Below, one piece after another: positions 2,142 to 23,469 of a stretch of 64,000 bases of DNA (its first letter is position 1; each line of letters begins with the position of its first letter). Under the pieces are notes generated by a model. It was not told where the DNA came from. It did not search any database and worked only from the letters and a program-made list of their open reading frames with translations. The stretch covers positions 42,724 through 106,723 of the forward strand of contig JBBQCI010000001.1 of the NCBI GenBank assembly GCA_038318565.1, given 5' to 3'. The translations under genes were made by a program, and so were the position numbers. The DNA is from Planctomycetota bacterium. Its GTDB lineage: Bacteria; Planctomycetota; UBA11346.

Positions 2142-2197
2142 GGGGAATTCCTTGGGGACGAAGATAGGACTTTTCGCAAGGCGGCAAACACCTGCTG

Positions 2198-2488
2198 TTA
2201 CAATCCTTTGCGACTGTAAGCTCGTTCGATCACTCCGCTCAGGTGGGTCTGGGCGTTACGCAGGTCGGTGGCATCCCCGTGCACGGCTGTAAAGAAATCC
2301 GCTCCTTGATCCGTCGGCTTGATGCCGACCAGGACAAAGCTCATACCCCCCAGGATGATCTGCACGGCTTTTCGCTGATCCTCGGTCAAACCGTCCGTTC
2401 CGCGCTCGGCCTCCGCCGGCGAAGTTGGCGCAGCCGGGGGTTTGGCAGCCCCAGCTACGCCCGGAAACTGGATGATCTTATCACTCAT
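2198..2488 (-). CDS. small hypothetical protein (about 96 aa)
   Basis: The ORF has consistent GC3 bias. I place the start at ATG 2488 (MSDKIIQFPGVAGAAK...). It lies upstream of sppA and co-directional with it. No family recognised. Confidence 0.35.
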   Translation of the reverse strand: MSDKIIQFPGVAGAAKPPAAPTSPAEAERGTDGLTEDQRKAVQIILGGMSFVLVGIKPTDQGADFFTAVHGDATDLRNAQTHLSGVIERAYSRKGL

Positions 2489-2675
2489 ACCCGTACGGTG
2501 GCACCGAATGCGGGTGCGCAACCTGGACCGGAGGCGGTGGGCCACTCACCCCCCCCGGTGACACACGCGCCCACTCCCTGTACTCTGCCACCCTTGGTCG
2601 CGGCCAACCAAAGCGCTAGCGTGCAGCCTTGCCCGGCTAGCTGCCGGTACGCATCCACCAGCGGGGATTCACGTT

Positions 2676-4529
2676 ATGGACAGCCATCAGGTCGCCTGGG
2701 GCCTCGACATCGGTCACTCGTCGATCAAGGCGGTCAAGCTCAGCCGCAATGGCAGTGACGTCACCGTACTCGGCTACGCCATCGAGCCCATCACCGTCGC
2801 GGAAGGTGGCGACCGCGATGCCGCCCTCCTCACCGCATTGCAGGCGATCATCGCCCGAGAGGAGTTCGGTGTCACGCCGGTCTTCGCCGCGATCAGCGGC
2901 AGGCAGGTGTTCACCCGCGCGGTCAACGTGCCGATGCTCAACCCCAAGCGCATGCATGCGATGGTGGAGCTGGAAGCCAAACAACAGATCCCTGGCAATT
3001 TCAATGAAGTCGAGTGGGGCTACCACAGCTCGCCGGCTCCTGACGGCGCCTCCCTGGATGTCGCCCTCTTTGCGGTCAAGCGCGAGATCATCCAGCAACT
3101 CATCACCAAGTGCAAAGGCGTTGGCCTCAATCTTGCCGGCGTCTCGGTCCCTTCGCTCGCGCTCTACAATTTCATCAAGTTCGACCAGCAGTTCCCAGAC
3201 GGAGAAGCGGTCATCATCCTTGATGTTGGCGCCGACAACACTGATCTCGTCGTCTACCAGGCCGACCAGCTGTGGATGCGCTCGCTGCCGGTTTCGGGCA
3301 ACGACATCACGCAGGTTTTCGCCAAGAAGTTCCGCGTTAGCGTCGCCGAAGCCGAAACGCTCAAGCGACAGGTCAACGATAGCCGCCAGGCCGACAAGAT
3401 CATCAAGGTGATCGAAAGTGGACTGACCGAACTGGTCAGCGAGATCAACCGCAGCATCGGTTTCTACAGGACGCAGAACACCAAGGCCGCGCTCGACAAC
3501 CTGGTGATCTCGGGGAACACCTTCCGCTTGCCCGGCCTGCCAGAATACATGGCCGAGAAGCTGCGCCTGACCATCAATATTCTCGAAGATCTCGATCGCA
3601 TCCAGGTCGCTGCGGGATTGGATCGTACCCACTTCATGCAGGACCTGCAGTGCCTTGGCGTTGCCATCGGGCTCGGCCTGCAGGCCACCGGCACCGCCCG
3701 CGCCAACGTCAACCTGATGCCCAGCGGCATGCAGGTCGAACGTCTGCTCAGCACCAAGAAATGGGCGGCAGCAGCGGTCATCGGCCTGCTTGGTGCAACC
3801 CTCTTCGCAGACTACTCCATCGCCAACAGCGCGGCGGAGAACAACGCCCGCTTGGCGACCAAGGTGACCCAGTACGCCAAGGACAACAAGGACCGCATGA
3901 AGCAGTCCGAGGCCGTCCTGCAAACCGTGCAGCAGCTGGCCCCGCAACTTGCCGCCTATGACGCAGTCGGGTCAAACCAGGGGCTGACCCATGCGGTCTT
4001 GTCAGGCGTCGTCGGAGTGGTCCAGACCATTGCCACCACCACCGAGATGCGCCCGGCAACCCCGGGCGGGGTGGGCGCGGCCGAACGATCGCCGCCATTG
4101 CAAGGCGCCTATCTCCGCCAGGTCGAGATGGGCGAACCAGCCGGCAACGGCAATACGGCCACCGCCACAGGCAACGATCCCTTCAGGCCGCTGGAGACCG
4201 AACGCATCGTCAACGTCCGGATCGACATCCCCGCCGGTGGCCGTCAAGGCGACATCCGGGCAGCCTTGCTGGATTCCCTGCGCAAGCTCCCGGTACCTGC
4301 GCACCTCCAGGATCTGACGCGTTCCCCCACCCTGTTCACCGATGTGCAGGTCCCAGAGGAGAAGGATGGCCAGGTCGAATGGTATTATCTCGACCGCGAC
4401 AACATCGATGAAGCCGGGAATGTGAAGCCGATCGAGGAGCGTCGTATGCTCTCCACCAGCATCACCACCTTCGTGTGCAAGCTGGCGACGTCTGCTGCAC
4501 CCGCCACTGCTCCGGAGGCCCAGAAGTGA
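2676..4529 (+). CDS. pilMN: type IV pilus / T2SS-like inner-membrane assembly protein, PilM-PilN fusion
   Basis: The N-terminal roughly 350 aa form an actin-like PilM domain (MDSHQVAWGLDIGHSSIKAVKL...). The conserved PilN N-terminal peptide (ANVNLMPSGMQVERLL) follows directly. After it come one TM helix (WAAAAVIGLLGATLFADY) and a PilN-like periplasmic coiled-coil and alpha/beta region. There is a GGGGA ribosome-binding site 8 nt upstream of the ATG. Confidence 0.7.
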   Translation: MDSHQVAWGLDIGHSSIKAVKLSRNGSDVTVLGYAIEPITVAEGGDRDAALLTALQAIIAREEFGVTPVFAAISGRQVFTRAVNVPMLNPKRMHAMVELEAKQQIPGNFNEVEWGYHSSPAPDGASLDVALFAVKREIIQQLITKCKGVGLNLAGVSVPSLALYNFIKFDQQFPDGEAVIILDVGADNTDLVVYQADQLWMRSLPVSGNDITQVFAKKFRVSVAEAETLKRQVNDSRQADKIIKVIESGLTELVSEINRSIGFYRTQNTKAALDNLVISGNTFRLPGLPEYMAEKLRLTINILEDLDRIQVAAGLDRTHFMQDLQCLGVAIGLGLQATGTARANVNLMPSGMQVERLLSTKKWAAAAVIGLLGATLFADYSIANSAAENNARLATKVTQYAKDNKDRMKQSEAVLQTVQQLAPQLAAYDAVGSNQGLTHAVLSGVVGVVQTIATTTEMRPATPGGVGAAERSPPLQGAYLRQVEMGEPAGNGNTATATGNDPFRPLETERIVNVRIDIPAGGRQGDIRAALLDSLRKLPVPAHLQDLTRSPTLFTDVQVPEEKDGQVEWYYLDRDNIDEAGNVKPIEERRMLSTSITTFVCKLATSAAPATAPEAQK

Positions 4530-5629
4530 AGCACCTCTACTGGATCGTGTGCGGCGTCACCATCGGCGTCATCCTCGTCGCCTGGTTCCTCGTTGTGCCC
4601 GCCGACAACGCCAGGGCGTCCAAACTGAAGCTCGACCAGCAGTCGAAGGACCTCAAGGATCTCGAGAAGCGTGCCGAGCGTGGCGATCCGCAAGGCGTCT
4701 TCGATGCCGAGAATTCGGCGGACACCCAGCGCCTGGCCAACGAATATCTGATTACCGAGAACTGGAAGCGGGTCCTGCAGCCGCACGTTGAGAAGTACGA
4801 GAAGCAGATGAAGGACCTCAAGGCCCAGTTGATGGGACGCGGAGCCTATCTGCATACCGTGGTTGCTCCGACGAAAAACACCCTGGAATGGTATAACGCC
4901 TACGCCACCGCTTCCGAGGCACTGGTGGTGCGTCTACGCGACGCCGGTTGTCTGCAGCGGGCCGCCGAAGACGAGATCCGTTCGGCTTCAGGCGAAAGTC
5001 CAGCGGCCGTCCGCAGCAGCGTCGGCCTGTTCACCCGCGCCGCTACATTCCCGGATCCCAGCCAGCATGCGCAGCTGACCACCAGATTGCGCGCCATGGA
5101 ACTGCTCGCCGACCGGCTCATCGAAGCCCGCCTCGCTGTGGCGAACAATCCGCTGATCGGCCCGACCGGCCGCAGCGAAGACCGAGCCAAGGCGGCCGCC
5201 GTGATTTTGTCCGTTGAATGGACTGCTGGCAGCGAGGCCGATGGCGGGGTGCGCAATCTGACCACCACCCTGTCCGGCCAGCTGCAGGCCCGCTCGGTCG
5301 GCTTGCGCCTGACACTTGAAGGGCCATTGAGCGCCCTCCTCGCCGCAAGCTCCACAATGGAACGCAACGCCGAGACGAATCGCCCCCTCGTCGCAGTGAC
5401 CTCAGCCAACCTCAGCCGGCGCGATAATGGCAAAGCCGGCGACCGTTTCGATATTGCTGATGACAACATCAGGCTGGTTCTGGCGGTCGAGATCATCGAA
5501 TTCGCCGAGACTGGAACCGGAACCGCTTCTGACAACGCGGCCAATACGCCAAGCGGTATGCCTCCGGCTATGGGGTCCCCCCCCGGTATAATGCCTGGCC
5601 GTCCACCTACGTCCCCCGGAGGCCGCTGA
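4526..5629 (+). CDS. PilO/GspM-like bitopic membrane protein with a Pro/Gly-rich C-terminal tail
   Basis: The GTG start overlaps the pilMN stop (GTGA). An N-terminal TM helix (LYWIVCGVTIGVILVAWFLVV) is followed by a coiled-coil and then an alpha/beta domain. The tail MPPAMGSPPGIMPGRPPTSPGG is proline-rich. I call it PilO-like from its architecture and its position after pilMN. Confidence 0.5.
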   Translation: MKHLYWIVCGVTIGVILVAWFLVVPADNARASKLKLDQQSKDLKDLEKRAERGDPQGVFDAENSADTQRLANEYLITENWKRVLQPHVEKYEKQMKDLKAQLMGRGAYLHTVVAPTKNTLEWYNAYATASEALVVRLRDAGCLQRAAEDEIRSASGESPAAVRSSVGLFTRAATFPDPSQHAQLTTRLRAMELLADRLIEARLAVANNPLIGPTGRSEDRAKAAAVILSVEWTAGSEADGGVRNLTTTLSGQLQARSVGLRLTLEGPLSALLAASSTMERNAETNRPLVAVTSANLSRRDNGKAGDRFDIADDNIRLVLAVEIIEFAETGTGTASDNAANTPSGMPPAMGSPPGIMPGRPPTSPGGR

Positions 5630-5630
5630 C

Positions 5631-7523
5631 ATGAGCGCCAAGACCTTTCTGATCGCCCATGGCGAGAAGCTCGCTGTCGCCGCCGTTGCCGGCGGCTGCA
5701 CCCTGGTGCTGATGGGCACGATCGACGACCCGACTATCCGCCCCAAAGACAACCAGGCGGCGATCGAGGCGATCAACGCCAAGATCGACGTCGTGTTCAA
5801 AAAGCAGAGCCCACCGGTGATGAAGGAGCCGCGCGCCTACCTCGACCAGCTCCTTGGCCGAATCGCGGACAGCGCGCCGACCACCCCAACGATGGCCTGG
5901 CTTACCAGTCCGCCTGACAAGGGCCGCGGCACAACGGTGATCGAAGGCAAGAATGTGCCACCCAGCGGCACCTACGTCTACATCTACGAACTGCTCGCCC
6001 CCACGGTGGCGCTTGAGGACGCGATCGGCTCGCTAAAAGTCAGCATCGCTCCACCGGTTGTTGCGGCCCAGGGCGCAGGCCGCCGCGTCACCAGCGAGGT
6101 CAGCCGGACCTGGACCCGCGACGACAAGGGCACGGTCACCAACACCGGACGCCACCTAGGCGTGCAGGTACAGATCAAGGTCGGCGACAACGACTGGAAG
6201 GCACTCGTGCTGCCCGGCGCCGGCAAGGATGGTGTGCTGCCGATCGACAAGCTGGCCAGCGCCCCAGTCACGATCCCGACTCCCGAGCCATGGCAACGCC
6301 ATCATCTCCGAGCTCGGCTGATCGCCGCAGCCACCGCCCTGGATCTTGATGCTAAGATCGAACGTCCCAAGCAGAGCGTCATCGTCTATCCTGGCGAAGC
6401 CTCCGCCGGGCCGACCGAGGACCAGGCCCTGCTCGATAAGGCCACGGCTCAATACGCAGCCAAGGATGGCGCACTATACAAGCTGTTCCTGCGTCCCTCC
6501 CCTGGCCCCCTGCCGACCAACAGCACACTGGAACCCGGCGAGAAGCTGTTCCTCGGTCCGTGGAGCCCGATCGCCAAAGTCGACGCCACCGCCAGTGTGC
6601 GCTTCGCCCTGGTTGGTCTCAGCACGGCTCCGATGGCGGAGGACCCGACCAAGACGCGCGACGTCGGACGCTTTTTGCTGCTGCGCCTGTTCCAGCAGGG
6701 CGAGGAGCGCAAATGGATGGAAAAACCTCTTGAATTGAAATTTGGCATCGGCGACGTCCTGGGCGTTAAGGGGGTAAAGATCGAGCATCCGTTTCTTGCA
6801 GGGAAGACGATTGAAGTCGATCTGATGACTCCCTTCGTCATCGACAAGCTAGTCAAGGATGAGAAGCGTGTCCTCTACTGGATGGTACGGGCAAAGACGC
6901 GTCCGACCGGCGGCAAGGACCGCGACCTAGAACTGTCGAACAAGGAAGTTCCAACCGATATCGTGGTACTGAAGAATCCGGAGACGGGCAGCGAGCTCAC
7001 CTTGACCAAGCTCATCAGCATCTCCCCGCCAAACCAGGCGAACGTGCAAGTCTACCCGTATCACGCCAGCCAGTACGTGGAGAAGGATGACTTCACCTCG
7101 GCGCCAAGCGAATTCCGCCAGTGGGGTCTGATCCCCGAAAAGCCCAAGGACTGGGCTCCCGGCAAAGGTCCGCTCGCGGAGCTATACAAGGCCAAGAAGG
7201 ACGAGGAGGCTCTCGACGCCGAAAGCTTCACCACCGACACCGCCTATTACGCCTTCCCTGATGGACGTCTGGTGTGGTGGGAACGGATAGAACACAAACA
7301 GATGGTCCACGACCCGGACGGCGTCCTGAGCGACAAGTCAGCTCTGCCCGCTCCGACCAAGACGGAACCGGCGCCGGGCCCAACCACAAAGCCGCCAGCT
7401 GGCATGCCGCCCACCGGTGCAACCAAGCCACCGGCTGGCTCGTCGCTGCCTCCTCCTGGAGGCATGCCACCCGGTGGCATGCCTCCCAGCTACACCCCAC
7501 CACCAGCACCGCCACGCAGGTGA
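5631..7523 (+). CDS. hypothetical 630-aa signal-anchored periplasmic protein, proline-rich C-terminus (occupies the pilP position)
   Basis: An N-terminal hydrophobic anchor (LAVAAVAGGCTLVLMG) is followed by a roughly 560-aa domain with no recognisable family. The C-terminal tail is PAPTKTEPAPGPTTKPPAGMPPTGATKPPAGSSLPPPGGMPPGGMPPSYTPPPAPP. It sits between the PilO-like gene and the first secretin. Confidence 0.5.
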   Translation: MSAKTFLIAHGEKLAVAAVAGGCTLVLMGTIDDPTIRPKDNQAAIEAINAKIDVVFKKQSPPVMKEPRAYLDQLLGRIADSAPTTPTMAWLTSPPDKGRGTTVIEGKNVPPSGTYVYIYELLAPTVALEDAIGSLKVSIAPPVVAAQGAGRRVTSEVSRTWTRDDKGTVTNTGRHLGVQVQIKVGDNDWKALVLPGAGKDGVLPIDKLASAPVTIPTPEPWQRHHLRARLIAAATALDLDAKIERPKQSVIVYPGEASAGPTEDQALLDKATAQYAAKDGALYKLFLRPSPGPLPTNSTLEPGEKLFLGPWSPIAKVDATASVRFALVGLSTAPMAEDPTKTRDVGRFLLLRLFQQGEERKWMEKPLELKFGIGDVLGVKGVKIEHPFLAGKTIEVDLMTPFVIDKLVKDEKRVLYWMVRAKTRPTGGKDRDLELSNKEVPTDIVVLKNPETGSELTLTKLISISPPNQANVQVYPYHASQYVEKDDFTSAPSEFRQWGLIPEKPKDWAPGKGPLAELYKAKKDEEALDAESFTTDTAYYAFPDGRLVWWERIEHKQMVHDPDGVLSDKSALPAPTKTEPAPGPTTKPPAGMPPTGATKPPAGSSLPPPGGMPPGGMPPSYTPPPAPPRR

Positions 7524-7659
7524 CGGTGAGAGTGACACCAGCAACGCCGGCGGGGTCTTCCCCCTCCGGCCCTCTGCTGTGGTCCTAGCATCCTCCAGAC
7601 CATCGTCGACGGCTGATCCAGCCGTCTCCCCGCCCCGAGCCTGACCAGAGGGACGCCCC

Positions 7660-10161
7660 ATGCGCTCGCGTTCACACATTCCGACCCACCTCTCGCCGCT
7701 TTTGCTGGCTATCGCCGTCCTGGCGCCTGCCGCGGAAGGTGGGCCTGCGCCGACTCCGGCACCCGCTCCAGCCGCGGTCGAACAGACTGCCCGGCCGGGC
7801 GAGGCCGAGGTCGCAGCTGACGCGGCTTATGCCGAAGCGCTGGCCAAGTATCGAGCAGGCGCCTTCGCCGAATCGCTCGAGCTGGTCGATCGCGCCGTCC
7901 AGCTATACCCGCCGCACGCTGGCGCCCAGCAGCTGCGCAGCGATGTGCTTGCCGTGCTCAACAACCGTGACAACCGCCTCAAGATGGCTGCTGCCTGGTT
8001 CGGCAGCCTGCAGGACGTCCGCACCCAAGAGACCGCCGTACGGCTGGCCGCCCTGCTCGAACGCGGCGACAAGGCGATGGCGGCGGGCGATTTCGAATCA
8101 GCGGAGCTGGACTACGATCGCGTCGACATCGGTATCCGCTCGTTTCCTTTTGCCTTCGAATGGGGCGAACTGCCCAAGCAGGTCGCCGCCAAGCGAGCCG
8201 AGGCCAGCGACAAAGTGCGCCTACGTACCATTCAGCGCCAGACCGATGACCGTCAGGCCGCTGCCGACACGGCCAAACGCCAAGCCGATCTCCAGGCCGA
8301 AGGTCTGCGCCTGAAGGTCGACGAACTCATGCGTCGCGCCAAGACCGCATACGACCGCAAAGATTACCGTCGCTCCGAAGTCGAGTCGTGGAACGCCTAC
8401 GAGTTGGATCGGCGCCGCGACGACGCTCGCGAACTCTATCTCGCGTCACGCCGCGAAGGCCATTACCAGTTCGATGGCCAATACCGTGTCGAGCGCGCCG
8501 AAGGCATCGCCCGGGTTTCGGAGGAGATCCACAAGGCGCTGGTTCCGCAGAATGAACTGCTGGTCTACCCGGAAGATTGGCGCCGCCGCACTCTGCGTAC
8601 TCCGCGAGAGATCGGCACACAGAAGGCCGAACCGTGGATGGCGGCCCTCAACGACCGCCTCGAACAGCGCGTCACCTTCGACTTTCAGGACCAGTCCTTT
8701 GAAGACGTCGTTGCCTTCCTCCGTCAAGTGACCGGAGTCAACATCATCGTTAGCCCGCAGGTCCTGGCCACCGCAGGCGGCGGCACGGTGACCCTGAAGG
8801 TGCGCGAGATGCGCTTCCGGGATGCCCTGAAATGGATCCTGGAAATCACTGGCTGGAAGATGGCTATTCAGGATCAAGCCATCTTCATCAATAATGAGGT
8901 GATCACTGGCGCGGCAGCCCTGCGTCTCTACGACGTCACTGACCTGATCACACCGGTGCGAGACTTCGCAGGTGTCGAACTGGCGTACGCTGCCGGTGGC
9001 GGCGCAGGCGGCGCTGCAGGCGGCGGACTGTTTGGGGCCGGCGGTGCCGAAGAGACTGGCGCAGCGCAGGATCCCCAAGAGTTGGTGGACTTCATCAAGA
9101 ACAACGTCACCAAAGACCAGTGGGGCCAGAACAATATCGACGTGCAGCAGCGCAGTGGCTCGACCCTGTTCGTCAGTCACACTCCGGAAGGTCACGAACT
9201 GGTCGCCCGTCTGCTCGCCAACCTGCGCAAGCAGACGGCCTTGCAGGTCAATGTCGGCGTCCGCTTGTTGGATGTGCGCAAAGGCTTCTTCGAAGAGATC
9301 GGCGTCGCCTGGACGGACAATCCCGCTGGATTCCTGAATAACACTGGCGCCGCGTCACTTCCTGGCAGTTTAGCAAACGGCACACCCGTTGATAGTCTGG
9401 AAGGCTGGACGACACGTCGCAATATGAATGGGGAGGCGGGTTACGTCGCTGACGGTTCGATCACCCAGAACCTGCCTGGTAACCGCACCGGGTATATTGC
9501 CCGCGGCCTAACCCTGGAAGGATCGCTGAACTCATCGAACTTCCTCAATGCTGATCAATTGAACGCCATCTTCACCGCCTCTGAGGACGAAACCGACTCG
9601 ACCGTGGTTCAGCATCCGATGCTCAGTTGCTTCAATGGTCAACGTGCCAATGCGACGTTCATCAACCAGTATGCGTTCATCTCCGACTACGAGATCGTCT
9701 CGGGCAACTACGACCCGGTGATCACGGTGCTGAACTACGGTAATATCCTGGATGTGCGTCCGGTTGTTTCCAGCGACCGCAAGTACATCACCATGGAGAT
9801 CCGACCCACGGCTGTCAGCTTCGTCGAATCAACGACGGAGACGATCATCGGTGTGCAGATCATCAACACTGGCGACATCGGGGTTGTCATTCCTGGCGTC
9901 GGGTACCCGATCGAACTGCCCAACATGCTGGTGCAGACCTTGCGCTCGACCGTCATGTTGCCCGATCGTGGAAGCCTCCTCATTGGCGGATTCAACCAGT
10001 CGACGCGTGTACGCAGCCACAGTGGCGTGCCGTTCCTCAGCCACATCCCGTTCCTCGGACGGCTGTTCAGCAAGAACGGCATCTACGACGACAACCGCAG
10101 GTCCTTTTTCCTGCTCAACGCGACCATCATGGACCTTACCGAGGCCGAGTCGCAGCAGTGA
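7660..10161 (+). CDS. secretin (GspD/PilQ family) paralog 1, 833 aa
   Basis: It has a signal peptide and an Arg/Asp/Glu-rich helical N-terminal region. An STN-like domain follows (VTFDFQDQSFEDVVAFLRQVTGVNIIV...ALKWILEITGWKMAIQ), then an N3-like domain. The C-terminal secretin domain ends with GVPFLSHIPFLGRLFSKNG. Confidence 0.85.
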   Translation: MRSRSHIPTHLSPLLLAIAVLAPAAEGGPAPTPAPAPAAVEQTARPGEAEVAADAAYAEALAKYRAGAFAESLELVDRAVQLYPPHAGAQQLRSDVLAVLNNRDNRLKMAAAWFGSLQDVRTQETAVRLAALLERGDKAMAAGDFESAELDYDRVDIGIRSFPFAFEWGELPKQVAAKRAEASDKVRLRTIQRQTDDRQAAADTAKRQADLQAEGLRLKVDELMRRAKTAYDRKDYRRSEVESWNAYELDRRRDDARELYLASRREGHYQFDGQYRVERAEGIARVSEEIHKALVPQNELLVYPEDWRRRTLRTPREIGTQKAEPWMAALNDRLEQRVTFDFQDQSFEDVVAFLRQVTGVNIIVSPQVLATAGGGTVTLKVREMRFRDALKWILEITGWKMAIQDQAIFINNEVITGAAALRLYDVTDLITPVRDFAGVELAYAAGGGAGGAAGGGLFGAGGAEETGAAQDPQELVDFIKNNVTKDQWGQNNIDVQQRSGSTLFVSHTPEGHELVARLLANLRKQTALQVNVGVRLLDVRKGFFEEIGVAWTDNPAGFLNNTGAASLPGSLANGTPVDSLEGWTTRRNMNGEAGYVADGSITQNLPGNRTGYIARGLTLEGSLNSSNFLNADQLNAIFTASEDETDSTVVQHPMLSCFNGQRANATFINQYAFISDYEIVSGNYDPVITVLNYGNILDVRPVVSSDRKYITMEIRPTAVSFVESTTETIIGVQIINTGDIGVVIPGVGYPIELPNMLVQTLRSTVMLPDRGSLLIGGFNQSTRVRSHSGVPFLSHIPFLGRLFSKNGIYDDNRRSFFLLNATIMDLTEAESQQ

Positions 10162-12359
10162 GCCGGAGGCACCAGGATTCGATGCAGACGGGTTCCGCGC
10201 ATGGGCGCGGCCAGTTGCCGCACGCCCTAGTGCTCACGTGTGTCGCCCTGGTAGGACTGCACGGGGCGGACCCGGTATCTGACCATGTGGCAGAGGCACA
10301 GGTCGGCACTGAGGCCGTCGCCATAGAGCTTATACGGGCCATCGATGATGCGTCCTTTCTGCTGGCTGCAGGACGTGCGCGTGAAGCAGCTGGACGCCTG
10401 AGCGATGCCTTGGCTGCAGCCGGGGCCAATGCCCCGCTGGCTGATCGACGACGGGCCGAAGCGTTGCTCGCCGACATCCATCGTCAGGAATCGCGCGATC
10501 AGACGGCTGGCGCGGAAGCCCTGCGCCGGTCCAGCGCTGCCGATGCCCAGGTTGCAGCGAACCATCAGTCTCGTGCTGCCGGCAATGCACGGGCGGAGCG
10601 CTTGTCGCGTATCGATGATCTGCGTCAGCGGAAACACAACGAGCTGGCGCTGGCACATTGCCGCTCGCTCCTGCACGATCTGCCGGGCGATGAAGAGGTT
10701 GATGCGATCTACCGTGAGATCCTCGATGAGACTCATACCGCCCGCAAGATGATTATTGAGGATCGCCAACGTGAACTCCGCAGCGAGTTGGCATTAATGA
10801 TCGAAAAGTCCCTCATCCCTGAGGGACTTGATGGCATGCCTATGTTCCCATCCGATTGGGGGACGGAGCGCATCCGACGTCAATCACCGATAGATGTGTC
10901 CGATCGTCCGGCCGCCTGGGAAGTGACGTTATCCGATCGGCTTGCCAGCCGAGCAACTGTTCAATTGGACGCAGTGCCACTACAAGAGGCGCTGGAACTG
11001 GTCTCCAAGCTGGGTGGGGTCAACCTGATCCCCGCTCCAGAACTGATCGCCTCGGGAGATCGGCTTATCACGCTGCGCGCGAACGACATGCGCTTGGACA
11101 GCATCCTCTCGTGGATAGCCCAACAGGCCTCAACCACCTGGGGCCTGGTGAGCGGTGGGGTTTTTGTTGGAGAACAGCCGGCTTCCAGTCGCAGCATCGT
11201 CCTGCACGACCTCGGTGAACTCCTGGTCGGAGTCGGCGACTTCCCTGGTTTGAGCCTAGCCATGACCACTGGTGGCGGAGGCGGTGGAACAGTAGGTTTC
11301 CTTGCGCCTGCCGCTACAGGCACAGTTGTCCCGACCGCAGATGACATCGCCGACCTCATCCGCAGATCAGTCAGTCCGGCCACCTGGACCGATTCCGAAA
11401 ACACCATGGTGGTTCGCGGCAATGCCCTGCTGGTAACGGCTCCGCCTGCCGTGCATCGTCTCCTGAGGGAATTCCTGCGCGCGCAATCGGCCCAGCACAG
11501 CCTGATGGTCCGAGTTCAACTGTACTGGTTAGAGTTGACCGACACATACGCCGAAGAGATCGGGGTGCAGTGGAGTAGCGGTGGCACCTACCTGACTGGC
11601 ATTCCCGGCAACGCCACGAACAGCTCCGGTCTGCTCCGTCAGGTTAACGGATGGGCTGTCGAGGGTGGTACGGCCAATCAGCTGCCGGCAAATTCGATGA
11701 CCCTGCAGGCATCGGGAACACCCGGAATGACCATGCAGACATCGTTCCTGGGCGATAGCCAGATCTCGGCAGTTCTTCAGGCAAGCGAGCGAAACCATCA
11801 GGGTCGAGTCCTGCGGTCCCCAGAGGTGGCCTGCATGAATGGCCAGCGGGCGAATGCCTTTTTCGGCGACCAGATCGCCTACATCAGCGACTACGAGATT
11901 GTCAGCGGAAACTATGATCCGGTGATCACCGTGCTCAACATCGGCAGTTCGATCGATGTGCGACCACTAGTCAGTGCGGATCGCCGTTACGTGACAATGG
12001 AACTGCGCGCCGCAACTGCCACAGCAACCTTCACGACCGAAAATATTATCGGCGTGCAGATTCTTGCCGGCGATGTCGGTTTGGCCATTCCTGGACAGAC
12101 CTTTCCCGTCGAACTGCCTAACGTCGAAGTCCGCGAAGTCGGTACAACCGTCATGCTGCCAGACAAAGGCAGCCTCTTGGTTGGCGGATTCACGTCGGGA
12201 CTCGATCAATTCGTTGCGACTCGCGTACCCTTGATCGGATCCATCCCGTTCCTGGGTCGTCTCTTCGGCGCTCGCGGTCGCTATGCCGAAAAGCGCAAAC
12301 TCAACCTGCTGACCACCGTCACCATCATCAACTATCCCGAACTGGAGGCCCGCCTGTGA
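10158..12359 (+). CDS. secretin (GspD/PilQ family) paralog 2, 733 aa
   Basis: Its start overlaps the paralog 1 stop. It has an STN-like domain (VQLDAVPLQEALELVSKLGGVNLIP...LDSILSWIAQQAS) and a secretin domain ending RVPLIGSIPFLGRLFGARG. The N-terminal helical region is shorter than in paralogs 1 and 3. Confidence 0.85.
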   Translation: MSRRHQDSMQTGSAHGRGQLPHALVLTCVALVGLHGADPVSDHVAEAQVGTEAVAIELIRAIDDASFLLAAGRAREAAGRLSDALAAAGANAPLADRRRAEALLADIHRQESRDQTAGAEALRRSSAADAQVAANHQSRAAGNARAERLSRIDDLRQRKHNELALAHCRSLLHDLPGDEEVDAIYREILDETHTARKMIIEDRQRELRSELALMIEKSLIPEGLDGMPMFPSDWGTERIRRQSPIDVSDRPAAWEVTLSDRLASRATVQLDAVPLQEALELVSKLGGVNLIPAPELIASGDRLITLRANDMRLDSILSWIAQQASTTWGLVSGGVFVGEQPASSRSIVLHDLGELLVGVGDFPGLSLAMTTGGGGGGTVGFLAPAATGTVVPTADDIADLIRRSVSPATWTDSENTMVVRGNALLVTAPPAVHRLLREFLRAQSAQHSLMVRVQLYWLELTDTYAEEIGVQWSSGGTYLTGIPGNATNSSGLLRQVNGWAVEGGTANQLPANSMTLQASGTPGMTMQTSFLGDSQISAVLQASERNHQGRVLRSPEVACMNGQRANAFFGDQIAYISDYEIVSGNYDPVITVLNIGSSIDVRPLVSADRRYVTMELRAATATATFTTENIIGVQILAGDVGLAIPGQTFPVELPNVEVREVGTTVMLPDKGSLLVGGFTSGLDQFVATRVPLIGSIPFLGRLFGARGRYAEKRKLNLLTTVTIINYPELEARL

Positions 12360-14869
12360 AGCCCCTGCACCACCGCCGTCTGGCGCTCACCGCCACCATG
12401 CTTGCCCTGGCCTACGCCCCGGTGACTGCCGCCGAGACGCCGCCGGCACCGCCTGCCCCACAGACCACTGGCGACGCCAACGCGGCGGCTGCCTTGGACA
12501 AGTACGCGACCGAACGTGACGCCCACCAGGCGGGACCTAACCAGGCGGCCGAGTACCACTTCGTCCGCGGCATGCGCGCCAGGGAAGAGAACCGCTTGCC
12601 CGACGCCGTGCGCGACCTGACTCTGGCGGTCGACTACGCTCCAGCCAATGCCGAGTACCAGGCCCAGCTGCGCGCTGTCCGCGCCCTCGCCGGCCTCGAA
12701 CGCGACCCGCGTTCGCAGCAGATCGACCGGCTCGTCGATGAGGTCCAGGTCAAGGATCAGGAGCTGTGGAATGAGTCCCAGGCAAAGAAGGCCGAAGGCA
12801 TCGCTGCCATGCAGGCCGGAGACTACAATCTGGCCGATCGCACCTTCCAGATGGCACTAGTACGCGTCGAAAGCCTGCCTTTCTCGGATGATCGCAAGAC
12901 CTCGGCAACGACCGAGCTGAACACCCTATTGGCCGAGGCCAAGACCCGTCGCGAAAGCGCCGACCGTGACGATGCCGCTTCCCGCAATCGTGCGGCATCC
13001 GACCGCAGCCGCGAACTGCGCGACATCGGCCTACAGCTCGAACGTGACCGCATCGACGCCATGCTGCGCCGCGCCCTACGCGCCCGCGAACGTCGTGACT
13101 ACGACGAATCCATCCTGATCTGCGAACAGGTTTTGAAGCTCAACCGGGCCGACGACCGGGCGACCGAACTGCTCGCCAAATGTCGCCGGGAACGCCACGT
13201 CTATATCCGCCAGATGACGGCCGACCGCTGGGACGAGGAGCACAAGCTGCTCTCGGAATCCATCCGCACCGCCATGCTGCCGCAGCTCGAACTCGTACGT
13301 TACACCACCGAATGGCCGGAGATCGACGCCCGCCGCAGCGCACCGGTGCAGGGTCTCGAGGAGAAGAGCGAATCCTGGCGCAAGGAGATCGCCAACCAGC
13401 TGGAACAGGAGATTACGCTCGACTTCCAAGATACCGACCTGGCCGACGTGGTGTCCTTCCTGCAACGGGTGACCAACGCCAACATCGTGCTCGATCCGCG
13501 GGTTCTGGCTGCCACGCCAGCCCCGGTGACCCTACGCGTCGAACGCATGAAGTTGAAATTCGTCCTCGACTTTGTGATGAAGATCACCGGTCTGAAGTAC
13601 ACTATGCGCAACGAGGCGATCTACATCTCCAACGAGGAAGGTACGCGCGGCGACCTCTTCATGAAGATGTATGACATCCGCGATCTGACCCACGCCATGG
13701 CCAGCTTCCCAGGCCCGAGCCTGGAAATCCCTGAACCAGGCGGTACCGGCAGCCAGCTGCTGCCTCCGATCGAAGCTGAAGCCAAGCCGGAGACGGGGGA
13801 ATTCATCGAAATCATCAAGCAGGTGGTCGTTCCCGCTTCGTGGGCCGATGGCACAGGCACGACCATCGAAGAGTACAACGGCTCCATGGTGGTGACCCAG
13901 AGCAATGAAGTTCACGTTCAGATCGACGAATTGCTGCGGGCCCTACGCAATCAGCGCGGCTCGCAGGTGCACGTGAAGTGCAAGTTCCTATCGGTAGAAA
14001 ATTCGGCCATGGAAGAGATAGGCGTCAACTGGCGCAATTATGGTACGAGCACCATCTATGGCGCGCCGCAGCCAACCGCTGTACCGCCGTTCAATACCGC
14101 TCCGATCACGGCAGCGAATCCCGTAAACATCGGCAATGCCGGTGCCTCCTGGCAGGGACCAGGTGCCGTCAATACAGCCGGTGAAGTCAATTCCGGCCTT
14201 GCCGGTAGCGGCCTGCCCGGCTATCTGACCGGGACGAACCTGACGACCACCGGTGGTCTGACGGCCAGCACCGCGACGTGGCAGCTTGGATCCGACTTCT
14301 TCGCCCGCGCTATCGTCAATGCGGTCGAGAAAGAGAATCGGGGCAACATCATCTTCCAACCAGACATCACCCTGTTCAACGGTCAACAGGCACACATCGT
14401 CAACATGAATCAGCGGTCGTACATTTCCGACTACGACGTCGTGCAGGGCCAGTATGATCCGATCATCTCGATTCTGTCCTACGGCACAGTGCTTGATGTG
14501 CAGGCCATCGCTTCGGCCGATAAGAAGTACATCACCCTGACGATGCGACCGACCAACGCGAACCTCGACCAGTTCCGTCGCTTCGTCATCGGTCAGTCCG
14601 CCTTCGGATCGTACCCGCTGACCGTACCGCAGATGGTCTACAACGCGGTGCGCACCTCGGCCACCATCCCCGATGGCGGCTCGCTGGTACTGGCCGGCAT
14701 GACCAATGGCATCAGCAACCGCAGTCACGCAGGCGTGCCATTCCTCAGCCACATCCCATTCCTTGGTCGGCTGTTCAGCACCAATGGCCGGGCCGAGTCG
14801 GAACGCCGCCAGATCATCGTCGTGCAGGCAGATCTAGTCCTCTTCGACGAGATCGAGTCGAAGCTGTAA
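12356..14869 (+). CDS. secretin (GspD/PilQ family) paralog 3, 837 aa
   Basis: The GTG start overlaps the paralog 2 stop (GTGA). It has a clear signal peptide (MKPLHHRRLALTATMLALAYAPVTAAE), an STN-like domain (ITLDFQDTDLADVVSFLQRVTNANIVLD) and a secretin domain ending GVPFLSHIPFLGRLFSTNG. A long Gly/Thr/Asn-rich insertion lies within the secretin domain. Confidence 0.85.
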   Translation: MKPLHHRRLALTATMLALAYAPVTAAETPPAPPAPQTTGDANAAAALDKYATERDAHQAGPNQAAEYHFVRGMRAREENRLPDAVRDLTLAVDYAPANAEYQAQLRAVRALAGLERDPRSQQIDRLVDEVQVKDQELWNESQAKKAEGIAAMQAGDYNLADRTFQMALVRVESLPFSDDRKTSATTELNTLLAEAKTRRESADRDDAASRNRAASDRSRELRDIGLQLERDRIDAMLRRALRARERRDYDESILICEQVLKLNRADDRATELLAKCRRERHVYIRQMTADRWDEEHKLLSESIRTAMLPQLELVRYTTEWPEIDARRSAPVQGLEEKSESWRKEIANQLEQEITLDFQDTDLADVVSFLQRVTNANIVLDPRVLAATPAPVTLRVERMKLKFVLDFVMKITGLKYTMRNEAIYISNEEGTRGDLFMKMYDIRDLTHAMASFPGPSLEIPEPGGTGSQLLPPIEAEAKPETGEFIEIIKQVVVPASWADGTGTTIEEYNGSMVVTQSNEVHVQIDELLRALRNQRGSQVHVKCKFLSVENSAMEEIGVNWRNYGTSTIYGAPQPTAVPPFNTAPITAANPVNIGNAGASWQGPGAVNTAGEVNSGLAGSGLPGYLTGTNLTTTGGLTASTATWQLGSDFFARAIVNAVEKENRGNIIFQPDITLFNGQQAHIVNMNQRSYISDYDVVQGQYDPIISILSYGTVLDVQAIASADKKYITLTMRPTNANLDQFRRFVIGQSAFGSYPLTVPQMVYNAVRTSATIPDGGSLVLAGMTNGISNRSHAGVPFLSHIPFLGRLFSTNGRAESERRQIIVVQADLVLFDEIESKL

Positions 14870-14902
14870 GCAACTCAGGTCCAGATCCTATTGGATTTTC
14901 GA

Positions 14903-14941
14903 GAGACACCGACAGCTGTTGCTGTCGGTGTCTCCGTTTCC
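14903..14941 (+). terminator. intrinsic terminator-like hairpin after the secretin operon
   Basis: A perfect 14-bp GC-rich stem (GAGACACCGACAGC, loop TGTT, GCTGTCGGTGTCTC) is followed by CGTTTCC. It lies 34 nt after the secretin 3 stop. Confidence 0.5.
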
Positions 14942-15030
14942 AGCGTATCTGACACCGATCGTTTCAATCGTTGCGTCAGTGGGTCCTGGAGATTGCACCT
15001 TCAGCACGCGTCCATACGTTTTGTAAAGAT

Positions 15031-18021
15031 ATGCCCGGTCAAGAGATCAACCCAACTGCGCGTCCCGGCGAATTGATCGCTGGGCGTTGGCGTCTGCTGC
15101 GCGAGATCGGGCGTGGCACATCTGGCCGAGTGTGGCAGGCCAAAGACGAGCATCTTGAGCGTGATGTTGCGGTGAAAGTTCTCGAAGCTTCGATAGAGGA
15201 CGAAGAACAGGTCCGCCGCTTCGAACGCGAGATCCGCGTTACTGCCCGTCTGCAGCATCCTGGCATTTGCGCCGTTTTCGAGGCTGCCGCGGACGACACG
15301 TCGCGACCGTGCTATGTCATGACCTTGGCCCGGGGTAGAACCCTCGATCAATTCATCGAAGAGCTCCGCCAAGTACCCGACCATTGGCGCACCTGGCCCC
15401 TGGTGGACCGATTGACCCTGTTCCTGAAGCTGCTCGACATCATGCATTACGCCCACAGCCAGGGCGTGGTGCATCGTGACCTGAAACCGGCCAACATCGT
15501 CATCGGCCAGTACGGCGAGTTGTGGGTGCTCGACTGGGGTCTTGCCCGCGACCTCCACGAAGAGCAGGCGGCCGAGAAGGCGTGGGATGCTGCCTTCTCC
15601 ACGGCAGACGAGAAGGTGAAGACTCCGCAACCGACTCCCGATCCGGTGACCGTCCGATCGCAGCGACTCGACACTGCGACTGTGATCATGAATGATCCCG
15701 ATGCAGCGGAAACCCAGGCGCTGGAATCACGACGACAGCCGCCTTCTTCACGCATCACCACTCCGGTTCCTGGCCAGAGCAGCACCAGCGAACGCCTGCG
15801 CAGCACCGACAGTCACCGGCGATCTTCGATGCGGGTATCGCGTTCGACGCATTTCGGACAGATCATGGGCAGCCCGGCCTACATGAGTCCGGAACAGGCG
15901 CTCGGCCGCGCTTCCGTTGTGGATCAGCGTACGGATGTCTATTCCCTCGGTTCGATCCTGGTCGAGATGATGGCTCTGCGCACGGCTCAGGAAATGGGCG
16001 AGGGTGAGGCGCTGATCGATTTCCTCGCCCGGATCAAAAAGGGCGACCGAAGGACGCTACGCGACCTCTGGCCCGAGGCGCCCCAGACGCTGCAGACGAT
16101 CGCCGAATGGGCCCTGGCCCGCGACCATCAGGACCGCTACCCGGACTGTGAGGTCTTCGCCCAGGATCTACGCACCCTGCTCATCCAGGTCTCCGAGAGC
16201 TATGCGCAACAGGAAGCCGTGCGCATGGCGCGGGAACGTGAAGGAGCCTGGCGAGGCCTGGGTCGCTGGGACTTCACCGCCAATCCGGATTCGGGACCAT
16301 TCAACCTGCCGTCGACCAGTTGGTGCGGCGAACAAGTCGGACACGTCCACCATCCCGAACTGGGCGGCATGCTGCTGGGCGGTTATGGCCTGCAGATCTA
16401 CCCATTGCAGGTCGAGGTCGGTGACGACGTACGCGTCACCGTCGAGATTGAGCTCATCCAAGGCGAGGAATTTTGGCTGCTTGCCCGCGGGATAGATCCC
16501 AGCCAGAGCTATCAGTTCCGTCTCGGTGCCTATGAAGGTCGATGGAGCACGATCACGCGTTCGCGCGGGGCGGCCAGCCCACAGGATGCTGAACTGCTGA
16601 GCATGCGCCCGATGCGCGAAACCGAGACAACCACCAAGATCGAGCGGTCGCAGCGGTCGCATCGCGTCGTGGTGGAATGCGAAGGCCAGATCCTGCGTTT
16701 CCATGTCGATGGCCAGGAGCCGCTGGCATTCCGCGACCTCAATCCGTTGACTGTCGCCCCGGGGACGACTATCGCGCTGGCAACCTGGAAGACCCAGGCC
16801 CTGGTCCGGACCCTGACCGTCGAACGCCGGCACGCTCCGCTGATGGTACCCAGCTACACGGTCGGCAACGAATTGCTGCGCCTCGGCCTCAATCAGGAGG
16901 CCGAGAACTGGTACGTGCGCTTCCTTGCCGAGCACGCTGATTCCGCGGAAGCGGTGCAGGCCTCGTTCCTGCGATGCATGGCCGTGCTCAAGCGTGGCGA
17001 CCTCGCGGCGACCTCCGAAGCGCTGCGCGAGTTCCTCGGCGACCATCTTGAGGATGTCTTGGCCCGTGACGCCATCTTCACCCTCGCCAAGGTACAGTAC
17101 GAGCGTCATGGCGGCAGCCTGCGAGCAGCAATCCGCGAACTGCTCGGCTATCAGGAATCGGGAGACGTGGTGCGTACCCGTTTCTGCCTGTGGATCATGC
17201 CGCTGATCGGCGCCCAGGTCGAACACGGGGGCCTGACAACCGAGGTCGAACACGACCTTGAACATCTCGCCCGCCTCATGCGCGGCTCCCCTGATGAATC
17301 GGCCCTGATGGGTACGATGTCCCGTTGGCTGTCGAGCCACCTGCGCGGCTGGCTGAACCACCTGGTCGACCGTACAGATGCGGTCGCCATTTCGGCCTGC
17401 CGTGACGCCATGCGCAGGTCCCGGGCGCTGGGTTACACCATTACCATTCGTGAACCGCGCATGCTCAGCGATTATGCCAGGATTTCGCACGAGATCAGCA
17501 ACACCGACGATCCTGCCCGAACCGTCCTGGTGATCGGTCGCGGCGAGGATCGGCCGACTACCTTGTTCGACTTCGTGCGCGACTCGCTGGTTCTGGTCGG
17601 GATGGGTGCTGAACGCCCGGTGCTGGCAGCGCTGTCGGGTGGCGAGGAGCTGACCCCGGTCGAACGCGTGCTGCGCGCCGGCCTGCGTCGCCGTCTCGGC
17701 GAGACTGCCGGAGCACAGGAAGACCTCGAGTGGTGTTTCCGGCTGACCGACGAACTGGAAACCTCACGCACCTCGCTGACCAAGCTGTTCGCAGCCCGCC
17801 TGGGCTGCCTGGCCCTCGGCTACCTTCCGGCCTCCTTGGTGCTCGACGGATTGTCGACCATCCGCGAGGATATCCTGCATTCCCCGCTGCTCGCCCTCAC
17901 CGCGTTCACCTGCGAAAGCCATGGTGACCGGCTCACCGCCATGCAACTATGGCGCGAACTGGCGGCCGAGGGCACCGGATTCAGCCTAGTCGGCAAGCAG
18001 GGCATCGAGCGGCTGAGCTGA
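15031..18021 (+). CDS. serine/threonine protein kinase with a roughly 700-aa C-terminal extension (beta-rich middle domain plus TPR-like helical region)
   Basis: It carries the Hanks kinase motifs: Gly loop GRGTSGRV, VAVK, HRDLKPANIV, DWGLAR, and SPAYMSPE in the activation loop. The ATG at 15031 sits 27 aa before the Gly loop. The ORF is open from TTG at 14971. Confidence 0.8.
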   Translation: MPGQEINPTARPGELIAGRWRLLREIGRGTSGRVWQAKDEHLERDVAVKVLEASIEDEEQVRRFEREIRVTARLQHPGICAVFEAAADDTSRPCYVMTLARGRTLDQFIEELRQVPDHWRTWPLVDRLTLFLKLLDIMHYAHSQGVVHRDLKPANIVIGQYGELWVLDWGLARDLHEEQAAEKAWDAAFSTADEKVKTPQPTPDPVTVRSQRLDTATVIMNDPDAAETQALESRRQPPSSRITTPVPGQSSTSERLRSTDSHRRSSMRVSRSTHFGQIMGSPAYMSPEQALGRASVVDQRTDVYSLGSILVEMMALRTAQEMGEGEALIDFLARIKKGDRRTLRDLWPEAPQTLQTIAEWALARDHQDRYPDCEVFAQDLRTLLIQVSESYAQQEAVRMAREREGAWRGLGRWDFTANPDSGPFNLPSTSWCGEQVGHVHHPELGGMLLGGYGLQIYPLQVEVGDDVRVTVEIELIQGEEFWLLARGIDPSQSYQFRLGAYEGRWSTITRSRGAASPQDAELLSMRPMRETETTTKIERSQRSHRVVVECEGQILRFHVDGQEPLAFRDLNPLTVAPGTTIALATWKTQALVRTLTVERRHAPLMVPSYTVGNELLRLGLNQEAENWYVRFLAEHADSAEAVQASFLRCMAVLKRGDLAATSEALREFLGDHLEDVLARDAIFTLAKVQYERHGGSLRAAIRELLGYQESGDVVRTRFCLWIMPLIGAQVEHGGLTTEVEHDLEHLARLMRGSPDESALMGTMSRWLSSHLRGWLNHLVDRTDAVAISACRDAMRRSRALGYTITIREPRMLSDYARISHEISNTDDPARTVLVIGRGEDRPTTLFDFVRDSLVLVGMGAERPVLAALSGGEELTPVERVLRAGLRRRLGETAGAQEDLEWCFRLTDELETSRTSLTKLFAARLGCLALGYLPASLVLDGLSTIREDILHSPLLALTAFTCESHGDRLTAMQLWRELAAEGTGFSLVGKQGIERLS

Positions 18022-18037
18022 CCCGGTCCGCTCAGCC
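18011..18037. terminator. possible bidirectional hairpin between convergent genes
   Basis: The structure is GGCTGAGC, an 11-nt loop, then GCTCAGCC. It spans the stop codons of the kinase (+) and the beta-helix gene (-). There is no clear U-tract. Confidence 0.25.
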
Positions 18038-22475: not shown

Positions 22476-22665
22476 ACCGATAGCCTTCCATGGTCGCATC
22501 ACGCCGCAAGTGGACCGGCGTTGCACCGTCGAAGGGAAGCGGGATGATGCAGGGGTGCCGCAGGACCCTCGCCAGACTCCACCATCAGACGTACATGCCC
22601 TGGTCCGTGAGGTCCTCGGCGGAGCCCAGCCTACCAGCGGGGTTCCTGGTGGTGGCTTAGGGTGG

Positions 22666-23469
22666 ATGGATGAGGCCGAGCCGGAGAAGCCAGGAAACAG
22701 CAGTGGCTGGGCCAGGCCGGGTGCGAAACCAAAGAGCGAGGACAGCGAAGTCGAGCAGGCCCGCCACATTCAGCTGCGCATGCTGACCACCCCGCCGCGA
22801 CTGCCCGGCCTGAGCTGTGCGGCCCGGTTCGAGCCCCACCACGAAGTCAGCGGCGACTTCTACGACTTCTTCCAATTCCCGGATGGCCGCTTAGGGGTCG
22901 TGCAGGGCGACGTCAGCGGTCACGGTGTCGCTGCCGGCATGGTCATGGCCATGGCCAAACAGACCATCCGCCTGCTTGCTTCCACCGGCTCCAATCCGGG
23001 CAAAGTGCTGATCGAGGCCAACCGCTGGCTGTGCGGTGCGATGGCTGGCAAGTTTGTCACCTGCATCTACCTGACCATCGATCCAGCCAAAGGTGAGTTG
23101 CGGCTCGCCCGTGCCGGTCACCCACCCCTGATCCTGGTCAATGCCGCCACCGGCAAGCGGGACATTTTGTCGCCCAAGGGCATCGCCCTGGGCATCCGCA
23201 GTGGCGCCGCATTCGCCGCCGGATCCGAAGAGATCCGGGTCGGTTTGCGTCCAGCCGACCTGCTGGTACTCGCCACGGATGGCCTTTTGGAAGCCAAGGA
23301 TCGCCTGGGCGAAGAGTTCGGCTGCGAACGCATGACCGATGTCATCGCTCAGCATGCTCCGGCCGGTCCCGAAGCCGTGGTCAACCGCATCCTTGATGCT
23401 GCCCGGCATTTCCAGGGCAGCGTCAACCTAGATGATGACGCCATGGCGGTCGCCATAGCCGTCGGCTGA
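22666..23469 (+). CDS. PP2C-family (SpoIIE/RsbU-like) serine phosphatase
   Basis: Motifs GDFYDFFQF...GDVSGHGVAAGMVMA and ATDGLLEA are present. The ORF is open from 22510, but that start lies only 35 bp from the divergent yifB start. I chose the ATG at 22666, which has a GGGTGG ribosome-binding site. The start is uncertain. Confidence 0.65.
   Translation: MDEAEPEKPGNSSGWARPGAKPKSEDSEVEQARHIQLRMLTTPPRLPGLSCAARFEPHHEVSGDFYDFFQFPDGRLGVVQGDVSGHGVAAGMVMAMAKQTIRLLASTGSNPGKVLIEANRWLCGAMAGKFVTCIYLTIDPAKGELRLARAGHPPLILVNAATGKRDILSPKGIALGIRSGAAFAAGSEEIRVGLRPADLLVLATDGLLEAKDRLGEEFGCERMTDVIAQHAPAGPEAVVNRILDAARHFQGSVNLDDDAMAVAIAVG

Follow-up and report, generated by a model that had tools for sequence, protein, structure and literature searches.

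A conserved triplet of diverged secretin paralogs at the end of a pil-like operon in Planctomycetota

In a 64-kb stretch of a Planctomycetota genome (GCA_038318565.1, contig JBBQCI010000001.1, positions 42,724 to 106,723; hereafter the window), three genes encoding diverged secretins lie head to tail and close a pil-like gene cluster with the order pilM-orf384-orf630-secA-secB-secC. Features were searched for within the window only, unless related loci (numbered L) are named. Related Planctomycetota keep the whole set in this order, and the gate hairpins of SecA and SecB resemble each other more within a genome than between genomes. We tentatively suggest, at slightly less than an even chance, that one type-IV-pilus-like machine of the PilM type uses the three proteins as an obligate module of several secretins, in which at least SecA and SecB share a ring.

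In a Pfam search, the three proteins exceeded the gathering cutoff of the Pfam Secretin family (PF00263), with 75.7, 74.6 and 81.4 bits for SecA, SecB and SecC against 27.5 bits. These scores and the open reading frames (ORFs) confirm an earlier description made from the letters of the window without database searches (the sequence-only reading), which had recognized three tandem genes of the GspD/PilQ family coding for 833, 733 and 837 aa. That the paralogs are clearly diverged from one another, as it also claimed, is borne out by pairwise alignment: SecA and SecB are 35% identical over 549 aa of their C-terminal parts, SecA and SecC 32% over 775 aa, and SecB and SecC 25% over 598 aa. The motif IPFLGRLF is invariant in the three proteins and belongs to a longer conserved stretch, VP(F/L)(L/I)..IPFLGRLF. 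A hydrophobic, signal-peptide-like segment can be read at the N-terminus of each translation. The N-terminal regions and the variable loops differ strongly among the three, and each paralog retains every element for forming a pore by itself.

The AlphaFold2 (AF2) models of SecA and SecB, with a mean predicted local distance difference test score (pLDDT) of 76 each, follow the same plan. An unstructured signal-peptide region leads into long helices of about 180-250 residues, a length found for the helical N-regions of all three paralogs, and then come an alpha/beta domain of the N0 type, a Gly-rich linker, N3 and a barrel of long beta-hairpins (double-hairpin). At the C-terminus, a short amphipathic helix at PFLGRLF is followed by the last strand and a 7-residue terminal helix. 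The chains stop about 10 residues past the last strand, and no S-domain is present in the models of SecA and SecB. With Foldseek, both models matched all secretin classes, covering the type II and III systems for secretion, type IV pili (T4P), Tad systems and phages (type IVb pilus BfpB, VcPilQ, InvG, GspD, RcpA and pIV), with E-values from 1e-19 to 1e-10. As modelled, SecA and SecB have the secretin fold, with the ring-building domain N3, a double-walled barrel, two gate hairpins and an amphipathic helical loop. The alignment and the hidden Markov model (HMM) matches of SecC point to the same architecture and fold.

In SecA, a helical region with tetratricopeptide repeats (TPR) spans residues 48-293, N0 337-425, the Gly-rich linker about 430-470, N3 472-526 and the secretin barrel 529-824. 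The barrel contains the GATE1 hairpin (663-703), the GATE2 hairpin (709-760) and the amphipathic-helix motif VPFLSHIPFLGRLF. A variable loop of low model confidence (553-612) is possibly exposed at the surface. The helical region of SecA is TPR-like at its start in the model, and the N-terminus of SecC has TPR repeats. SecB has the same N0-N3-secretin order behind a shorter helical region, in which no TPR was found by HMM search. The sequence-only reading had assigned to all three proteins a signal peptide, a helical region, an STN-like domain, N3 and a secretin domain ending in PFLGRLF. This architecture stands, but the label STN-like is only loosely right, as Pfam STN matches none of the three proteins and the domain has an N0 fold; its identity is based on a weak GspD_N0 match in SecC and on the N0 structure of N. 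meningitidis PilQ (4ar0) found by Foldseek. We agree with that reading in seeing no separate pilotin and no S-domain. SecA and SecC carry the N-terminal TPR region, and Ottman et al. likened the corresponding region of an Akkermansia homologue to a pilotin (PMC4960237).

At the border of secB and secC, stop and start codons overlap as GTGA (12356-12359), with GGAG(G) 7-8 nt upstream, and the same GGAG...GTGA arrangement is found in 24 of 24 loci. Sequence alone could hardly give better support to the coupling of SecC translation to that of SecB. The Shine-Dalgarno sequence GGAGG of SecC lies within the codons for a conserved peptide at the SecB C-terminus, E-L-E-A-x-L (12339-12356 and the orthologous junctions), and the SecB tail and the SecC ribosome-binding site are under mutual constraint. 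Between secA and secB, (A/G)TGA is found in 17 of 21 orthologous loci, and the 4 most divergent loci have a TAA or TAG stop and gaps of 24-53 nt. In the window, secB may just as plausibly start at the ATG at 10182, which has GGAGG ahead of it at 10165-10169. This start matches a 725-aa database copy of SecB (P0253), 8 residues short of the 733-aa ORF. Under either start, the distance from secA to secB does not exceed 21 nt. The overlap of stop and start codons described in the sequence-only reading for both junctions holds for secB and secC, whereas for secA and secB the GTGA overlap (10158-10161) exists but competes with an equally good start.

Scanning a single genome from each species yielded 38 loci, all in metagenome-assembled genomes (MAGs) of Planctomycetota, and the scan of metagenomes gave 57 further loci. 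The order pilM-orf-orf-A-B-C, with one-to-one orthologs, was found in every locus of sufficient length, about 25 in all. The triplet is intact in 14 species-representative genomes and in about 7 metagenome contigs. No locus lacks a paralog: contigs that end early break in the expected order, and the apparent exception (L059) carries the C-terminal signature of SecB. Relatives keep all three paralogs in the same order, and none was reduced to a single one. The identity of the orthologs to the proteins of the window is 44-74% for SecA, 31-60% for SecB and 46-77% for SecC, and because of this range we regard the triplet as old and under purifying selection. All available orthologs are at most 77% identical, and synonymous sites are saturated. 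Mean ortholog identity is 0.55 for SecA, 0.43 for SecB and 0.60 for SecC, being SecB the fastest-evolving and SecC the most conserved paralog. Protein searches returned more than 120 ortholog clusters (at 90% identity) for SecA, which are 44-74% identical to it, more than 120 for SecC and 23 for SecB. The few SecB clusters fit its faster divergence and the word-based candidate step of the search. Cluster names give nothing beyond "GspD/PulD secretin" or "hypothetical". Public contigs gave no exact match to SecA or SecC.

Interrupted copies were seen in three draft loci, of SecA in L018 (9587-12398) and L024 (9608-11928) and of SecB in L054 (5659-7927). They are either frameshift errors or cases of occasional pseudogenisation. 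Such copies are what would be expected if the paralogs were redundant duplicates in decay, or if the triplet were an assembly artefact, an explanation that is largely refuted and that we find hardly credible. The ORFs are intact in the window, with no sign of pseudogenes among the three, and in about 20 independent assemblies whose orthologs are 31-77% identical. Duplication during assembly is excluded by the 25-35% identity between paralogs, and the interruptions were all in draft or metagenome assemblies, whose frameshifts may be errors of sequencing.

A neighbour-joining tree built on the C-terminal 520 residues resolves SecA, SecB and SecC as three monophyletic groups whose topologies mirror one another, which places the duplications before the clade. 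SecA is sister to SecB. SecC, the conservative copy of ancestral type, clusters with single long secretins from other Planctomycetota, for instance that of a Pirellulales MAG. Behind pilM and two ORFs of no assigned family, a distant second lineage (L029, 5048-9057; L030, 1548-6515) has diverged secretins in tandem, at least two of them and 32-34% identical, which indicates that multi-secretin pil operons arose more than once or predate the clade with SecA, SecB and SecC.

The conservative nature of SecC and its grouping with single-copy secretins could also mean that SecC is the true outer-membrane channel, while SecA and/or SecB are an accessory periplasmic ring, a scaffold or assembly factors. 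They could be a ring, stacked or concentric, that bridges the enlarged periplasm, or act as a built-in pilotin-like helper. In line with this, SecB evolves fastest, gives no TPR matches and has a poorly conserved N0 (around 10950-11210), with a mean ortholog identity of 0.38 against 0.60 in SecA and 0.64 in SecC, and all three proteins have the long helical N-regions. The N0 domain of other secretins contacts the inner-membrane alignment complex, and SecB, with its loose N0, may not make this contact. However, nothing of the barrel is lost in SecA and SecB, which also keep the two gate hairpins and the invariant motif of the amphipathic helix that serves in membrane insertion. A soluble periplasmic ring would need none of these, and we consider an accessory role for them improbable.

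If SecA and SecB had evolved independently after they were duplicated, the identity between SecA of one genome and SecB of another should be the same as that between SecA and SecB of a single genome. This is not the case for residues 654-774 of SecA, where SecA-SecB identity is 0.51 within genomes versus 0.44 between genomes (z = 8.5, p ≤ 5e-6, 19 genomes); none of 200,000 permutations reached the observed value. The excess of SecA-SecB identity is confined to this one region. In the comparisons that control for composition, the SecA-SecC and SecB-SecC pairs show nothing there (p = 0.29 and p = 0.73). Weak signals were observed elsewhere, for SecB-SecC in N3 (p = 0.00026) and for SecA-SecC in N0 (p = 0.009), and we do not build on them.

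We mapped the gates by alignment with InvG, by the hairpins of the AF2 models and by the published description of VcPilQ (PMC7545093). In SecA, the GATE1 hairpin is matched by residues 663-703, whose tip is at S681/G682, and GATE2 by residues 709-760. By analogy with these structures, both together would make up the inner barrel and the periplasmic gate. The gate hairpins of adjacent subunits are in contact in solved secretins, as indicated in VcPilQ by cysteines at the GATE1 tip (S448C/S453C), which cross-link neighboring subunits (PMC7545093).

SecA and SecB have lineage-specific gate tips in common: SGNYDPVITVLN in the window, SSNLDPKI.VLT in L005, NNNLDPVIEVL in L046 and GYGGNGGTLDPTI in L055. 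The SecC tip is QGQYDPIISILS almost everywhere. In L055, secA and secB share an exact match of 41 nt at the GATE1 tip (peptide AYISGYGGNGGT), which is a recent short tract of gene conversion. The SecC gate tip of L055 is also Gly-rich (GGGNGGF), with different DNA. Exact tracts of about 21 nt are shared by secA and secB in L005 and L044. In the window and in L046, the common gate residues are encoded through saturated synonymous codons, including serine switches between TCN and AGY, and in the window no exact match of secA with secB exceeds 12 nt, a length not above what is found between genomes. Recent conversion as the sole cause of the SecA/SecB gate similarity was rejected for the window on these two grounds, and since such saturated codons occur in several genomes, it is not the whole story. 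The SecA and SecB gates thus evolve in concert, by episodic conversion after which the matched state persists. Concerted gates would be expected if the gate modules of SecA and SecB must fit together, which makes the pattern suggestive of a common ring and not decisive.

We propose that the region is the distal half of a T4P-like envelope operon of an uncultured Planctomycetota lineage, in which the outer-membrane secretin gene would have been triplicated and the three copies kept as an obligate, co-translated set. The three proteins would be produced jointly, in a fixed proportion, and would serve a single outer-membrane conduit rather than three unrelated machines. The most likely arrangement would be a mixture of SecA and SecB in one ring, which would explain their matched inner-barrel and gate modules; SecC would be a further member of this ring or have a separate ring on the same machine. 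The long N-terminal helices may contribute to spanning the wide planctomycetal periplasm. In this proposal, we infer co-expression in a fixed ratio, co-assembly and a link to pili or cell-surface structures. A more specific version builds on the hetero-oligomeric channel raised in the sequence-only reading: in such a natural secretin, all three paralogs, or at least SecA and SecB, would co-assemble with fixed stoichiometry, as a mixed ring (e.g. of repeating A-B(-C) units) or as coaxial rings. We take this version to be rather unlikely. If true, it would be the first such pore, its different N-domains would contact different periplasmic or inner-membrane partners, and it could provide one class of cell-surface pore or pilus-base structure in planctomycetes with its protein basis.

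Several points weigh against a shared module. The gates of SecC do not co-vary with those of SecA or SecB, so a ring of three paralogs is not specifically supported. Concerted gates could also come from neutral conversion that stays within the most similar segment, which conversion would be expected to strike even in the absence of selection, and part of the concerted evolution is plain conversion between adjacent paralogs (L055, L005 and L044), for which a functional reason is not needed. The secretins may have their own promoter, given the 136-nt gap in front of secA. Further pilus or secretion machines, each using one of the secretins, may lie outside the window, and an orphan pilC is found already 11 kb away. 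Every solved secretin among the structures matched by sequence and by Foldseek is a homo-oligomer.

The homo-oligomeric state of all solved secretins also favors three independent pores with separate roles (different pilus types, secretion of proteins or polymers, DNA uptake) that are merely co-transcribed. The likeness of the SecA and SecB gates would then reflect neutral gene conversion or a similar substrate diameter. This is a serious possibility, though on the whole we doubt it. Each paralog could form a pore alone, the N-terminal regions and variable loops are strongly different, gene conversion is directly seen in L055, and the orphan pilC hints at more than one machine. On the other side, the paralogs are strictly retained together across deep divergence, in a fixed order and with conserved coupled junctions, which exceeds what would be expected of separate channels. 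Independent secretin channels in other bacteria are usually located with their own machines, whereas just one pilM-orf-orf set stands beside the three secretins in this cluster. Moreover, the gate identity of SecA and SecB outlasts synonymous saturation.

The first gene of the cluster encodes a protein with an actin-like PilM domain followed by a membrane-spanning and periplasmic extension (Table 1). It scores 157.7 bits with TIGR01175 (cutoff 133) and matches the Amuc_1101 family with an E-value of 1.2e-65. The gene is kept upstream of the secretins in related loci, and no second pilM gene was found in the window. Translation of orf384 probably starts further downstream than 4475, close to the hydrophobic segment. 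In about 20 loci, an ortholog of orf384 is found at this place in the cluster, and it often overlaps its neighbors by 4 nt; orf630 lies directly upstream of secA in all long loci. Searches of Pfam and NCBIfam gave nothing usable for orf384, orf630 and the C-terminal half of the PilM-like protein, even at permissive E-values. Between orf630 and secA there are 136 nt of non-coding DNA (7524-7659), against overlaps elsewhere in the cluster, and this gap, which measures 30-340 nt in orthologous loci, may hold an internal promoter or regulatory element.

The operon likely ends at a hairpin behind secC, which was spotted by eye and then folded. Its T-tract is weak (CGTTTCC), and we call it a terminator by inference. 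The scan for promoter and terminator consensus sequences in 2000-15200, which missed this hairpin, gave nothing above shuffled expectation. With the PilM-like gene upstream, the tight junctions and the hairpin after secC, the assignment of the three genes to one pil-like operon in the sequence-only reading is supported. In the rest of the window, no secretin other than these three and no pilin motif or pilin-like gene were found, and an Rfam scan detected no RNA genes.

Table 1. Features of the secretin cluster in the window, and the orthologous triplet of locus L055 (in the coordinates of that locus)
Feature	Position	Strand	Remarks
pilM-like gene	2676..4529	+	617 aa; Pfam PilM_2, E 6.5e-38; first gene of the cluster
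orf384	4475..5629	+	bitopic membrane protein with one N-terminal hydrophobic helix; PilN/PilO position
orf630	5631..7523	+	N-terminal anchor, Pro-rich tail; PilP position
secA, secretin paralog A	7660..10161	+	833 aa, ATG start; Pfam Secretin 75.7 bits
secA/secB junction	10158..10184	+	GTGA overlap 10158-10161; alternative start with GGAGG 10165-10169 and ATG 10182
secB, secretin paralog B	10158..12359	+	733 aa from GTG 10158 or 725 aa from ATG 10182; Pfam Secretin 74.6 bits
secB/secC coupling site	12339..12359	+	GGAGG within the last secB codons (peptide ELEARL), then GTG start (12356) overlapping the TGA stop (12357-12359)
secC, secretin paralog C	12356..14869	+	837 aa, GTG start; Pfam Secretin 81.4 bits, TPR_2
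hairpin	14901..14935	+	perfect, 14 bp, GC-rich, 32 nt after the secC stop; -30.4 kcal/mol, z = -7.2 versus shuffles
L055 triplet	SecA 2776-5331, SecB 5386-7977, SecC 7974-10610		

About 11 kb from the secretin operon, the window contains an orphan platform gene of the PilC/GspF type (26313-27602, minus strand; Pfam T2SSF, E 2e-65). No ATPase or pilin gene is adjacent to it, and the flanking ORFs (25614-26300 and 27770-28435) have no family match. Directly past the terminal hairpin, a gene on the plus strand (14971-18021) encodes a Ser/Thr protein kinase of 1016 aa. As it adjoins the operon only in the closest relatives (L027 and L040), the kinase gene probably does not belong to the module. 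A gene convergent with it, on the minus strand (18032-20950), encodes a right-handed beta-helix protein of 972 aa with a GH141 insertion domain, which is probably a polysaccharide-active enzyme. Also near the pilus-type operon and on the minus strand (20958-22769) is the gene of a Mg-chelatase-like AAA+ protein with the domains ChlI, Mg_chelatase and Mg_chelatase_C, which we take to be of the YifB/ComM type. ComM acts in natural transformation in other bacteria.

The conserved, coupled triplet with its matched SecA/SecB gates is the best candidate known to us for a natural secretin of mixed subunits. It would surprise a specialist in secretins and offers a hypothesis that is directly testable. 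A mixed ring, if true, would raise the questions of what sets the symmetry and stoichiometry of the ring, how a gate of unlike subunits opens and in what way a secretin is adapted to a periplasm as unusually wide as that of planctomycetes. The genes would then also be a concrete set to test against the pilus-bearing surface structures of Planctomycetota. If the pores are separate, the triplet would still be a clear case of paralogs with separate roles held in one transcription unit.

Among known systems, the gene order recalls the PilMNOPQ system of type IVa pili (T4aP), as in Myxococcus xanthus, Vibrio cholerae and Pseudomonas aeruginosa, with PilM first, bitopic membrane proteins next and the secretin last. 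No HMM match to PilN, PilO or PilP was found in the two genes between pilM and secA, though their position and membrane topology fit. The best sequence matches with solved structures are the PilQ proteins of M. xanthus (3jc8) and V. cholerae (6w6m). T4aP PilQ has the same N0-N3-secretin order and two gate hairpins and likewise no S-domain. However, the N-terminus of the paralogs is helical or TPR-containing and has no AMIN domains, and there are three secretins where T4aP have one, which forms a homo-oligomeric 12- to 15-mer. The PilQ model TIGR02515 gives 66.4, 65.7 and 77.5 bits, well below its cutoff of 284.35. The proteins also fall short of the GspD model TIGR02517 (55-99 bits against a cutoff of 351). 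They differ from GspD in having one N0 and one N3, without N1/N2 and S-domain, and no gspC-M genes were found near the secretin cluster.

Members of the secretin superfamily form large detergent-resistant multimers of 12 to 17 subunits in the outer membrane. Secretin pores are known as multi-protein assemblies of the outer membrane in PilQ-TsaP, BfpB-BfpG, GspD-pilotin and RcpA-TadD, and the SecA and SecB models have their top Foldseek match in BfpB of the BfpBG complex (9u5s). The partners in those assemblies are non-secretin proteins, whereas here the candidate partners are full secretin paralogs. In 1994, Kazmierczak et al. reportedly found that the related secretins pIV of phages f1 and IKe co-assemble when co-expressed. 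This implies that mixed secretin rings are physically possible. Nevertheless, that work concerned an artificial combination from two phages and not a naturally conserved operon of several paralogs. Our literature searches (heteromeric, tandem and multiple secretins; secretins of Planctomycetes; crateriform structures) returned no prior description of such a case. A survey of type IV filaments reported duplications of ATPases, pilins and platforms, not of secretins (PMC6668835). The components of the planctomycetal crateriform structures are still unknown (PMC5394234; 2025 review PMC12673574), and the connection of the triplet with these or other cell-surface pores, which the sequence-only reading had brought up, is pure speculation.

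The NCBIfam models for Amuc_1098 and Amuc_1101 of Akkermansia muciniphila, which belongs to the PVC superphylum, were among the best matches. Amuc_1098, named PilQ, is located in the outer membrane and highly abundant (PMC4960237). It is, like the secretins described here, a large protein with an N-terminal TPR or helical region. The Amuc_1098-1102 cluster is also alike in that a PilM-like gene of the Amuc_1101 family adjoins the secretin, together with small genes of no assigned family. It has a single secretin in place of three diverged, coupled paralogs. With the Amuc_1098 family model (NF042912), the three proteins score 77, 44 and 81 bits, against an equivalog cutoff of 750. They are distant relatives of Amuc_1098 and not members of its family, related to it in architecture and neighborhood only. 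By these two features, the PilQ of Akkermansia (Amuc_1098), with its Amuc_1101, is the nearest described relative of the triplet.

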